Below, in pieces: positions 10,159-59,336 of a stretch of 64,000 bases of DNA. The position numbers and the translations under genes are program-made. The notes beneath the pieces were generated by a model. That model had not been told where the DNA came from. It was given only the letters and a program-made list of their open reading frames with translations, and ran no database searches. How positions within the stretch are numbered: the first letter of the stretch is position 1; each line of letters begins with the position of its first letter. Source of the DNA: Eledone cirrhosa (Eukaryota); the NCBI GenBank assembly GCA_964016885.1, contig OZ024764.1, positions 23,126,001 through 23,190,000 on the forward strand. The letters run 5' to 3'.

Positions 10159-11190
10159 ATGTCGAAAAATATAGTAAAATCACCATTCCACTGTGATATC
10201 TGTGGTAAATCATTCTCTCGTAGTGATAACCTAACTACTCACAAACGTATTCATACAGGAGAAAAGCCATATCAATGTGACATCTGTGATAAATCATTCT
10301 CTCAAAGTAGTCACCTAACTACTCACAAACGTATTCATACAGGAGAGAAGAAATATCACTGTGACATCTGTGGTAAATCATTCTCTAAATATAACAACCT
10401 AACTACTCACAAACGTATTCATACAGGAGAGAAGAAAGATCACTGTGACATCTGTGGTAAAACATTCTCTAAATATAACAACCTAACTACCCACAAACGT
10501 ATTCATACAGGAGAGAAGAAATATCACTGTGACATCTGTGGTAAAACATTCTCTAAATATAACAACCTAACTACTCACAAACGTATTCATACAGGAGAAA
10601 AGCCATATCAATGTGATATCTGTGATAAATCATTCTATCAAAGTAGTCACCTAACTACTCACAAACGTATTCATACAGGAGAGAAGACATATCACTGTGA
10701 CATCTGTGGTAAAACATTCTCTAAATATAACTACCTAACTATTCACAAATGTATTCATACAGGAGAAAAGCCATATCAATGTGACATCTGTGGTAAATCA
10801 TTCTCTCAAAGTATTCACCTAACTACTCACAAACGTACTCATACAGGAGAGAAACCATATCATTGTGACATCTGTGGTAAAACATTCTCTGAAAATAATA
10901 ACCTAACTACTCACAAACGTATTCATACAGGAGAGACGCCATATCAATGTGACATCTGTGATAAATCATTCTCTCAAAGTAGTCACCTAACTACTCACAA
11001 ACGTATTCATACAGGAGAGAAGACATATCACTGTGATATCTGTGGTAAATCATTCAGTCAGAGTAATACCTTAACTGCCCACAAACGTACTCATACGGCA
11101 GAGAAGCCATATCACTGTGACATCTGTGGTAAATCATTCTCTCCCTGTAGTAACTTAACTAAGCATGTGCGTATTCATACAGAAGTTTAG
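10159..11190 (+). CDS. C2H2 zinc-finger protein, 12 tandem fingers, no effector domain (ZNF-1)
   Basis: 12 x CxxC-x12-HxxxH with TGEK(P/K/T) linkers; 9-aa leader MSKNIVKSP; in-frame TGA at 10138 upstream. Confidence 0.92.
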
Positions 11191-11457
11191 CTGTATCAAT
11201 ATCAAACTCATTACATCATACTACAACAACAACAATTGTGTAGATCCATCATCCTTGCTAAAACTGGGGTTAACCTTGTAGGTTTTACCTATGACAGGGA
11301 TCATAAACACCAGGTTTCCATTTTTGAAGCAGTGTCTCAAGATTTTGTGTAAATTAAAGTTTTTCACATTAAACTTTGATTTATTATACTTTAACAGGTA
11401 AGATATATATTTGTATTTTTAGTAAAGGTTTGGAACTTCTGTAATTTAAACCTGCCA

Positions 11458-11463
11458 ATTAAA
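11458..11463 (+). terminator. Candidate poly(A) signal ATTAAA (AATAAA in paralogs at 26503, 40571, 59591)
   Basis: About 260-270 nt after each stop, followed by a GT/T-rich tract (ttttgttgtt). Confidence 0.6.
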
Positions 11464-11814
11464 TGAAAACTTTTGTTGTTGCTAGTCAGACATTGATATT
11501 AATTCTATTGTCCTGTACATTGTCTCAAATATCACAGATTAAACAGATTTTAACAATATCAACAGAAATCAATAACTTGTAAATCTAGCTTCCATTTTAA
11601 CTATTTGATATTGTTGTTCCCCTCCTGTCTCTTCAGGTCTTTTAGATTTCAACTTCTATTTACTGGACTATTCCATCACCAAGGCAACATTCATCTGGCT
11701 GGCAGCTTACATCAACTACAAATATCATCAGTGGTTCACAACAGGCTGTCTGAAAGAAACTTGCAGATATCTTCTATGTCATAGCTATCAATATCCTCCT
11801 CCTTATCATATGTA

Positions 11815-12325
11815 CCAGTCTCACAGTCCCTCTAGATCTTATATTTAAGAGGGAGATCTTTTACTGTCCCTACACTTTTATCAAGATAGTCTTGTACCAC
11901 TCTCACAGTCCCTATAGATCTTATATTTAACAAGGAGATCTTTTACTACCTGTACCCTTTTCTCTAGGTTTTCTTGTACCTCTCTCACAGTCCCTCAATA
12001 TCTTATATTTCACAGGGAGATCTTTTACTGTCCATACCCTTTTCTCTAGGTTGTCTTGTACCTCTCACAGTCCCTGTAGATCTTATATTTAACAGGGAGA
12101 TCTTTTACTGTCCCTACCCTTTTCTCTAGGTTGTCTTGTACCTCTCACAGTCCCTCTAGATCTTATATTTAACGGAGATCTTTTACTCTCCAACCCTTTT
12201 CTCTAGGTTGTCTTGTACCACCCTCACAGTCCCTGTAGATCTTATATTTAACAGGGAGATCTTTTACTCTCCAACCCTTCTATCTCCAGATAGTCTTGTA
12301 TCTGTCAGTCCCTCTAGATCTTACA
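11815..12325. repeat. 80-bp minisatellite, ~6 copies
   Basis: Period 80 (cctctcacag at 12061 and 12141). Confidence 0.9.
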
Positions 12326-56608: not shown

Positions 56609-57179
56609 TAATCTAATGACACTAATAACTACTTTTATCTGTCAGTTTAATCTAATCTCACTAATAACTACTTTTATCAGTCAGTTTAATCTAATGTCAC
56701 TAATAACTACTTTTATCAGTCAGTTTAATCTAATGTCACTAATAACTACTTTTATCAGTCAGTATAATCTAATGTCACTAATAACTACTTTTATCTGTCA
56801 GTTTAATCTAATGTCACTAATAACTACTTTTATCAGTCAGTTTAATCTAATGTCACTAATAACTACTTTTATCTGTCAGTATAATCTAATGTCACTACTA
56901 ACTACTTTTATCAGTCAGTATAATCTAATGTCACTAATAACTACTTTTATCAGTCAGTTTAATCTAATGTCACTAATAACTACTTTTATCAGTCAGTATA
57001 ATCTAATGTCACTAATAACTACTTTTATCAGTCAGTATAATCTAATGTCACTAATAACTACTTTTATCAGTCAGTATAATCTAATGTCACTAATAACTAC
57101 TTTTATCAGTCAGTATAATCTAATCTCACTAATAACTACTTTTATCAGTCAGTTTAATCTACTGCCACTAATAACTAAC
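56609..57179. repeat. 39-bp minisatellite, 14 full copies
   Basis: 13-codon period of ORF 56616-57188. Confidence 0.95.
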
Positions 57180-57321
57180 CTATGTTAGTCAGCACATTCT
57201 TCACCAAGGAAGGCCTTAGTATTTATTACAGTCCATTTATCAATATAGAAATATTATATGAAATTTGTACTGATGTATTACAAGTTTCTGAGTATCTTAT
57301 AATGTTCTTTTATTATTTCAG

Positions 57322-58136
57322 AATACCGGAGGACATTGGCATTAAAGAGCACGTTACATCAGACATATCCTCAACATTAACCATTTCTAATGAAAGACAC
57401 TACCCATCATTTTCAAATAATTTTGAAAACACTCAACACTTTGAAGGGATTTAGTAATATAACTAAAGTTCTCAGTATTAAGCTGCTATTTGGAACATAA
57501 CTTTGCACAATTTCATGAAGTTATAATGGAAAGTTTTTAGATAAATATAAAGACTGGTATGAAAAGGATAAAACACTTTTATATCAGTTGTTTCATCAAC
57601 ACCATTATTTAAAGACTAAAGGAAGCTGTTATACAGAACAGATACAACCTTGTTTATATAAATCTATGGGAGAAATACTGTGAAATATTTCTTGTAAACT
57701 CAATAACACTTCTATTCTTTGCTGTCTGGAATATGTAGAAGATACAAAATAAAGCTGAAGAAATTTACACATGATTTTATAAGATCTTCATATATTGACA
57801 AAGATGATAGTTGATGGAACTACAGGAGTAGAAATATTTCCATTATTACAGGAATAACTAATCAAATAAAAACCAGAAAAATTAGATTCTTCACTGTCTG
57901 GAATATGTACAAGATGATTTTATATGTATATTAAACTTGAAGAGATCTACTAAACAGTTTCTATCATCTTTAAATATAAAGAAAGACCAAAGTTGATGGA
58001 AATATATCTGGAGGAATATATTTTAGGAATAATATTATAAACATAAAGAAGAAAAATATCCATATATTGCGAGGAGAAAAATATTAAAACTGTGAATTAT
58101 GTGAGAAACTGAGGTGATTGATATCTTCTATGAGAT
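57322..58136 (+). pseudogene. Decayed N-terminal coding region in the leader of ZNF-4
   Basis: Near-identical to 24559-25375 with largely the same disablements. Confidence 0.65.
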
Positions 58137-59336
58137 ATGTCGAAAAATATAGTAAAATCACCATTCCACTGTGATGTCTGTGGTAAATCATTCTCTAAAA
58201 ATACTAAATTAACTAGACACAAACGTATTCATACAGGAGAGAAACTATATCAGTGTGATATCTGTGATAAGTCATTTTCTCAAACTTATACCTTAACTAT
58301 TCATAAGTGTATTGGTACAGGAGAGAAACCATATCACTGTGGTATATGTAGTAAATCATTCTCTTACAGAAGTATCTTTGTTAAACACCAACGTATTCAT
58401 ACAGGAGAGAAACCATATCACTGTGATATCTGTGGTAAATCATTCAGTCAGAGTAGTACCTTAACTACTCACAAACGTATTCATACAGGAGAGAACCCAT
58501 ATCACTGTGATATCTGTGGTAAATCGTTCAGTCAGAGTAGTACCTTAACTACTCACAAATGTATTCATACAGGCGAGAACCTATATCACTGTGATATCTG
58601 TGGTAAATCATTCTCTGGCAGTAGTCACCTAATTACTCACAAACGTATTCATACAGGAGAAAAGCCATATCGCTGTGATATCTGTGGTAAATCATTCTCT
58701 GATAGTAGTCACCTAATTACTCACAAACGTATTCATACGGGAGAGAAGCCATATCACTGTGACATCTGTGGTAAATCATTCAGTCACAGTAGTACCTTAA
58801 CTACTCACAAACGTATTCATACAGGAGAGAAGCCATACCACTGTGACATCTGTGATAAATCCTTCTCTCATAATAGTGGCCTAACTACTCACAAATGTAT
58901 TCATACAAGAGAGAAGACATATCACTGTGACATCTGTGGTAAATCATTCAGTCACAGTAGTACCTTAACTACTCACAAACGTATTCATACAGGGGAGAAG
59001 CCATATCACTGTGATATCTGTGGTAAATCATTCATTCGCAGTAATACCTTAACTAATCACCAACGTGTTCATACAGGAGAGAAGCCATACCACTGTGATA
59101 TTTGTGGTAAATCATTCAGTCACAGTAGTACCTTAACTACTCACAAACGTATTCATACAGGAGAGAAGCCATATCATTGTGACATCTGTGGTAAATCATT
59201 CGCTGACAGAAGTAGCTTAGCTAACCACAAACGTACTCATACAGGAGAGAAGCCATATCACTGTGACATCTGTGGTAAATCATTCTCTCTTAGAGGTAAC
59301 TTAACCAAACATGTGCGTATTCATACAAAAGTTTAG
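58137..59336 (+). CDS. C2H2 zinc-finger protein, 14 fingers, finger 2 lacking the second His (ZNF-4)
   Basis: 14 repeats of 28 aa; HKCIG in finger 2. Confidence 0.93.

Follow-up and report, generated by a model that had tools for sequence, protein, structure and literature searches.

The DNA analysed here is a 64,000-nt window of the Eledone cirrhosa genome (GCA_964016885.1, contig OZ024764.1, positions 23,126,001 to 23,190,000 of the forward strand), and it carries four genes for poly-zinc-finger proteins, ZNF-1 to ZNF-4 (Table 1; positions are counted from the first base of the window). A six-frame scan returned four C2H2 arrays, all on the plus strand and all in open reading frames (ORFs). 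Their 84-bp finger repeats, 48 in total, follow the Kruppel-type pattern of C-X2-C-X12-H-X3-H with a 28-residue period and TGEKPY-type linkers (Pfam zf-H2C2_2 and zf-C2H2), and 47 of the 48 are canonical, the exception being finger 2 of ZNF-4, which has lost its second His. We read the locus, with a probability of about 70%, as a young tandem cluster of effector-less C2H2 genes whose arrays have been rearranged within genes and likely exchanged between them, under selection for new base-contacting residues, each copy being predicted to bind different DNA.

The genes are arranged as tandem units of 14–19 kb each. Between units, the 360 bases 3′ of the stop codons diverge by 2.9–3.7%, indicating that whole units were duplicated recently, with flanks now about 3% apart. 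The original prediction had the flanks aligning almost base for base, which holds in the shared spacer blocks (89–98% identity) and fails elsewhere, where large indels and unit-specific insertions of transposable elements (TEs) intervene. Its other structural statements stood up well, as the leader and the last half-finger are indeed fixed across the four genes and all 48 helix strings (positions -1 to +3) could be reproduced as written, although it makes no mention of the His missing from finger 2 of ZNF-4. A further unit probably lies to the left, since the window opens with sequence matching the 3′ flank of the units. At the other end, the usual 3′ flank of ZNF-4 is replaced at 59795-61315 by three copies of a ~608-bp unit, each with a 98-bp triple repeat.

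Table 1. Coordinates of the zinc finger genes, their predicted exons, and other features of the window.
Feature	Positions	Strand	Remarks
ZNF-1 ORF	10159..11190	+	8-residue leader, then 12 C2H2 fingers
ZNF-2 ORF	25376..26239	+	10 fingers; period-2 duplication (F3, F5)
ZNF-3 ORF	39277..40308	+	12 fingers
ZNF-4 ORF	58137..59336	+	14 finger repeats
Predicted finger-bearing exon, ZNF-4	57322..59531	+	Acceptor predicted from sequence; donor backed by run joint
Equivalents of the ZNF-4 finger exon (predicted)	9948-11397, 24559-26443, 39066-40511	+	
Predicted 3′ untranslated region (3′-UTR) intron after ZNF-1	11398..12600	+	~200 nt past stop; putative acceptor
Equivalents of the 3′-UTR intron (predicted)	26444-27662, 40512-41251	+	Donor also at 59532
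Predicted non-coding 3′ exon	12601..12845	+	Copies start at 409, 27663, 41252
~607-bp segment	24720..25325 (unit 2), 57483-58089 (unit 4)		Deleted in units 1 and 3, just before ATG
3.4-kb block	19530..22928		Present before ZNF-2 and ZNF-3; missing, with identical junction, before ZNF-1 and ZNF-4
39-bp variable number tandem repeat (VNTR), non-coding, upstream of ZNF-1	9547..9803		6.6 copies
39-bp VNTR, non-coding, upstream of ZNF-2	23768..24414		16.6 copies
39-bp VNTR, non-coding, upstream of ZNF-3	38781..38921		3.6 copies
39-bp VNTR, non-coding, upstream of ZNF-4	56608..57177		14.6 copies
Non-long-terminal-repeat (non-LTR) retrotransposon reverse transcriptase ORF	7837..9411	-	RVT_1, E 5e-36; inserted in unit 1 only
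Non-LTR reverse transcriptase remnant	41692..43377	+	RVT_1, E 1e-32; broken by stop
Broken DNA-transposon-like remnant with Spin-doc zinc finger	15719..16333	-	Co-duplicated at 4452-4886, 31861-32397
Broken DDE_1 transposase remnant	48306..49597	+	Only in spacer before ZNF-4

Inside the arrays the picture is very different from that in the flanks. Fingers diverge by 16.8% within genes and 17.7% between genes, against the 2.9–3.7% of the flanks, and the nearest neighbour of a finger lies in another gene for 25 of the 48, in its own gene for 20, with three ties; the finger trees thus ignore gene boundaries rather than following gene order. There are 34 distinct fingerprints among the 48 fingers, and none of the 43 distinct adjacent pairs occurs in two genes. 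No finger pair between ZNF-1 and ZNF-4 comes within five differences of 75. Colinearity survives only at the array ends (the last 275 nt of ZNF-2 and ZNF-3 differ at nine positions), while in the interior it stands at 0.19, compared to 0.90 (0.77–0.98) in simulated descent without turnover. Near-identical internal blocks occur at shifts of one, two, four, and eight fingers, demonstrating block duplication inside genes; in ZNF-1, for example, a period-4 duplication (F2, F6, F10) is accompanied by a triplication of F3-F5. The arrays were therefore rebuilt after unit duplication, within about 3% sequence divergence.

The distinctive modules said to reappear at different positions in different genes are real at the DNA level, as four aligned pairs attest: Z2F2/Z3F6 (3 mismatches in 78 nt, 12 non-consensus bases in common), Z2F7/Z4F3 (3 in 56 nt, nine in common), Z3F2/Z4F11 (5 in 84 nt, six in common), and Z2F7/Z4F13 (5 in 33 nt, seven in common). 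In pairwise homoplasy index (PHI)-type tests for recombination, linker-centred windows gave p values of 0.0008–0.006, two-finger windows 0.0002–0.007, and scaffold positions alone 0.037. Since the two-finger and linker tests also react to moves of whole fingers, exchange of pieces smaller than a finger is likely. We also noted two helix haplotype families in the codons at positions -2 and +4, in which the rarer Ser codon class at -2 is tied to one Leu codon class at +4 (11/12 versus 11/36, p 0.0004).

Movement of cassettes between genes, the central claim of the original prediction, fared less simply: exchange is favoured, and rearrangement within genes alone also reorders fingers. We consider it probable that units have exchanged sequence and kept one common finger pool. 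Two flank deletions bear on this, as the loss of the 607-bp segment groups units 1 and 3 against 2 and 4, and the absence of the 3.4-kb block groups units 1 and 4 against 2 and 3, such that no single tree fits both. A second organism has the junction of the 607-bp deletion as well (runs X1, X2, and X5), indicating an old deletion. A toy simulation under flat priors was run 26,394 times, and the 1% of runs closest to the data comprised 17 with intragenic change only, 90 in which the four genes exchanged sequence, and 157 in which unsampled paralogs acted as donors; exchange was favoured 4–9 fold at thresholds of 0.5–2% and 3–4 fold at 5%. Single-nucleotide polymorphisms in the spacers offered few informative sites, with two blocks poorly aligned for unit 3. 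A cycle in module order across genes was considered as proof of exchange and rejected, given that duplication followed by deletion within one array also reorders fingers.

The variation between fingers is concentrated where DNA would be contacted. The first and last fingers are anchored by unique flanks, and their 12 helix bases require a minimum of nine (F1) and eight (last finger) mutations, where 0.65 are expected from the flanks (34 of 626 sites variable; Poisson p 3e-8 and 5e-7); the remaining 69 bases of the same fingers require seven and four. Contact codons in these anchored fingers thus change ~9-fold faster than the flanks. Across the pool, diversity reaches 0.447 at contact codon positions 1-2, compared to 0.091 and 0.193 at 4-fold and 2-fold scaffold sites, respectively, and 0.045 in the neighbouring non-coding VNTR (37 copies). 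Parsimony estimates of the ratio of nonsynonymous to synonymous change (dN/dS) on two trees were 2.78 and 3.66 for contacts and 0.17 and 0.19 for zinc ligands and core, and all 15 changes at codon +3 on the all-sites tree alter the amino acid. A partitioned codon model, though over-parameterised, gave relative speeds of 2.94 for contacts and 0.26 for ligands. Contacts accordingly vary faster than silent scaffold sites, and the selection at contact residues that had been proposed is borne out by both the anchored-finger excess and the dN/dS counts: statistically, and with the caveat that recombination imposes on such counts, purifying selection acts on the ligands and diversifying selection on positions -1, +2, +3, and +6. 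As a separate observation, the second base of the +2 contact codon is A in 25 cases and G in 21, and many contact alleles are one A-to-G step apart, a spacing at which adenosine-to-inosine (A-to-I) editing could recode contacts in RNA; we found no paper on A-to-I recoding of these codons in the literature searched.

With respect to gene structure, the predicted splice acceptor lies 211 bases before the ATG in units 1 and 3 and about 815 bases before it in units 2 and 4. When four runs were compared over 46200-60300, a joint ending at 59531 was present in run X2 only, at a depth of 357. This position immediately precedes a GT donor that all four units retain. The other side of the joint comprises 33 bases with one mismatch to the predicted 3′ exon after ZNF-1 and ZNF-3, ~143 bases into it, and two mismatches to that after ZNF-2; inside the window, no copy of this exon was found 3′ of ZNF-4. 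As the joint falls exactly at the 3′-UTR splice donor, some unit is likely transcribed, and most simply the joint would come from a spliced transcript of one paralog. A back-splice or a unit-to-unit splice was rejected because agreement between the 33-base side and the predicted 3′ exon of units 1-3 extends over exactly this length. Expression, on which the original prediction depended, is hence likely for at least some unit, with the gene left unassigned. In vertebrates, an intron ~200 bases past the stop codon triggers nonsense-mediated decay.

Other features near these exons were noted. Part of the 607-bp segment (~24770-25060) has an older and diverged copy in the predicted 3′ exon at 12601-12845, with an alignment score of 171 against a shuffled maximum of 112. 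At 9949-10080 and its equivalents, the predicted acceptor is followed at once by a 43-codon frame that ends ahead of the finger ATG and may represent either an upstream ORF or the tail of an upstream coding exon; its copies in ZNF-3 and ZNF-4 gave no Pfam match, nor did the ZNF-4 counterpart of a 76-codon frame in the 607-bp segment.

Between ZNF-2 and ZNF-4, 167 plus-strand ORFs of at least 40 codons were listed, namely ZNF-4 itself, two reverse transcriptase frames that were scanned separately, and 164 others; a search of these 164 for effector domains gave no match to KRAB, SET, BTB, SCAN, or ZAD, and would miss shorter exons or exons outside the window. The ZNF-3 ORF likewise had no KRAB, SET, or SSXRD match. 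With no KRAB or SET domain found, these genes are neither KRAB-ZFP nor PRDM9 genes. An out-of-frame stretch upstream of the ATG (10113-10124, 25330-25341, 39231-39242, and 58094-58105) matches four residues of the acidic leader found in three Octopus C2H2 proteins, where the spacing to the first finger is similar. It may be a decayed leader, but the match is not significant (E 2.2), and a search with the octopus leader as the query found only itself.

Taken in order, the events begin with the recent duplication of whole 14–19 kb units, and the arrays, as their near-identical internal repeats show, gained and lost blocks of one to four fingers through in-register duplication and deletion. Pieces smaller than a finger would likely have been swapped, giving mosaic helices, and the units would probably have exchanged sequence and so kept a single pool of fingers, with purifying selection acting on the ligands and diversifying selection on the four contact positions. 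A spliced mRNA, likely for some unit, would yield a putative protein made up almost entirely of fingers. Such proteins would bind long sites, different for each, and act by occlusion or through partners recruited by the fingers, with DNA binding itself expected from family membership.

Several observations weigh against this reading. The fingers show a small degree of clustering by gene (Fst 0.054, p 0.0035), the PHI test centred on fingers is significant at the smallest window only (p 0.016, 0.26, 0.90), and the best cross-gene tracts, at 3.8–6.7% mismatch, are not below flank divergence, so that no tract proves transfer after duplication. The 607-bp deletion has microhomology, and its versions in units 1 and 3 are one base apart, so it could have occurred twice. 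Several linkers are altered across the arrays and some fingers are damaged, dN/dS at the other scaffold sites (0.75 and 0.69) is not clearly below 1, and recombination violates the single-tree basis of dN/dS counts (PMC5519329), making their p values optimistic, though the tree-free comparisons agree. Finally, the X2 joint is not assignable to one gene, and the kind of run that X2 represents is not on record.

Among the alternatives, a more far-reaching account posits a shared library, in which gene conversion would carry helix-sized pieces from one neighbouring gene to another and so keep making new effector-less readers against young transposons, amounting to a PRDM9-like minisatellite process running family-wide in a mollusc; taken whole, we hold it to be doubtful. 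A more conservative account dispenses with traffic between genes altogether, a diverse ancestral array having been copied with each unit and then rearranged through duplication, deletion, and conversion inside each copy alone, under the same contact selection. The internal block duplications are obvious, the common cassettes are no closer than the flanks, and in a separate simulation one intragenic-only setting, at about six plus six events in each gene, reproduced the observed summary in 13% of runs, compared to 11–19% with exchange. However, it must explain the incompatible flank deletions by repeated deletion, where unit exchange would otherwise be required, and intragenic-only runs tend to raise gene-level clustering and supplied few of the 264 closest runs; we consider this account rather unlikely.

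Rearrangement with exchange and contact selection must also be set against neutral minisatellite churn, by which the arrays would change like the adjacent VNTR, with unconstrained contacts and a drift toward pseudogenes. The VNTR does range from 3.6 to 16.6 copies across the same units, non-ligand scaffold dN/dS is about 0.7, and there is the lost His along with the altered linkers. Contacts nevertheless exceed each neutral yardstick tried (flanks, silent sites, and the VNTR), codon +3 lacks any silent change, and all four ORFs are open with conserved ligands, so churn of this kind was already disfavoured and appears very unlikely. The notion that the genes specify recombination hotspots in the manner of PRDM9 draws on the homogenised 84-bp array, its diversity focused at contacts, and a high Baker statistic, for which the four genes (0.35–0.42) rank 5, 11, 12, and 18 of 218 arrays; the median of the 214 other fetched arrays was 0.25, in a set biased to the query and with positions not matched for certain to those of the paper. 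Several non-SET control arrays score equally high, meaning that this degree of homogenisation is not unique. The values also fall short of the 0.687 of human PRDM9 (0.33–1.0 in complete PRDM9 orthologues), and the absence of SET, KRAB, and SSXRD matches in the ORF or the 164 upstream ORFs, together with the multiple copies, makes such a role highly improbable. That the mosaic arrays are assembly artefacts is barely credible: the run contigs are so fragmented that none spans an array, and finger order lacks independent confirmation, yet four frames are open, the differences concentrate at contact codons, and X1 flank contigs match with 1 difference in 216–276 bases.

The locus is also rich in transposon remains. 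Besides those in Table 1, degraded reverse transcriptase relatives lie at about 21–23 kb, 37–38 kb, and 62–64 kb, and the Spin-doc match, which falls below the Pfam cut-off at 15719..16333, passes it in the 4452-4886 copy. Broken ORFs with no Pfam match (53467-54908) lie in a 2.5-kb insertion unique to the region before ZNF-4; their motifs resemble the endonuclease end of a CRE-type retrotransposon, and the empty site of the insertion stands in runs X1 and X2. These elements are no evidence of TE targeting, because they were co-duplicated with the units, as TEs also are inside mouse zinc finger clusters (PMC12575710), and because repeats make up ~45% of the O. bimaculoides genome (PMC10547256). 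Young transposons or other fast-changing repeats would still be the most likely targets, at a little under even odds, a suggestion drawn from the literature, where TE consensus sequences show an excess of the motifs predicted for octopus ZNFs (PMC10547256). The same evolution with host genes as the selected targets, for instance in neural regulation, would fit the expression of expanded cephalopod C2H2 genes in nervous tissue, split among co-expression modules (PMC12513265). The motif enrichment counts against it, and recurrent contact change within about 3% divergence would suit a moving target better than stable promoters; we regard host targets as fairly unlikely.

Regarding the proteins themselves, an N-terminal homology search led to named Octopus proteins, a whole-protein search was dominated by long vertebrate proteins, and ranking by finger-scaffold identity placed Octopus C2H2 proteins in the top eight among 240 fetched proteins. 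An Atlas search returned generic C2H2 clusters only, and none of the four proteins was present in the exact-sequence protein collection. Among proteins of solved structure, those closest in sequence are ZFP568, Aart, PRDM9, and CTCF. With their closest proteins in Octopus and their clustered, tandem fingers, the genes resemble the coleoid C2H2 expansion (PMC12513265, PMC9068888), which includes 1,453 reported C2H2 sequences in O. bimaculoides (PMC12513265, PMC9068888). The present arrays are more homogeneous, with scaffold identities of 0.81–0.87 against 0.59–0.77 in six Octopus control arrays. The work on the octopus expansion is at the gene level, and PMC12513265 contains no match to "shuffl" or "recombination"; we found no finger-level analysis of cephalopod arrays in the literature searched, which left most subscription papers outside its coverage.

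Young mammalian KRAB-ZFP clusters share with this locus local duplication, contact selection, gain and loss of fingers, short conversions between paralogs, and co-duplicated TEs (PMC2604467, PMC12575710). They differ in carrying KRAB and in that their paralog arrays are alignable (PMC2604467), whereas the interiors here are unalignable at 3% flank divergence. The original prediction had also taken KRAB-ZFP arrays in general to evolve as minisatellites, which does not hold, as PMC2794550 describes finger homogenisation as very unusual among tandem zinc finger genes and presents a representative KRAB gene without it. PRDM9 offers a parallel in its coding minisatellite with recombination between fingers, conserved end fingers, and contact diversity (PMC2794550, PMC5519329), in contrast to which this locus has no SET, KRAB, or SSXRD match, many paralogs with one finger pool, and weaker homogenisation (82–85% DNA identity between fingers).

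Closer in organisation are the hemipteran ZF271-like/APEZ genes, which are also from invertebrates, consist of fingers only with no effector, lie in tandem clusters of 4–8 genes, and shuffle their arrays (PMC6444547); they arose in an independent lineage, and the part of that paper available contains no finger-level test of selection. The zebrafish FiNZ-ZNFs are a further KRAB-less expansion with positive selection at contacts, but they have an acidic FiNZ exon at the N-terminus, and knock-down supports a role for them in TE repression (PMC10547256); the leader here is eight residues long and the lineage is not fish. The process is thus already described in mammals, fish, and insects, and the locus adds a young poly-zinc-finger cluster within the cephalopod C2H2 expansion, in which genomes hold roughly 800 to 2,800 C2H2 genes and a transposon arms race versus brain regulation has been called an open question (PMC12513265). 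With nearly the same flanks, leader, and scaffold and no adjacent fingerprint pair in common, the four genes form a natural controlled experiment, one that shows how quickly new, predicted specificities can appear.

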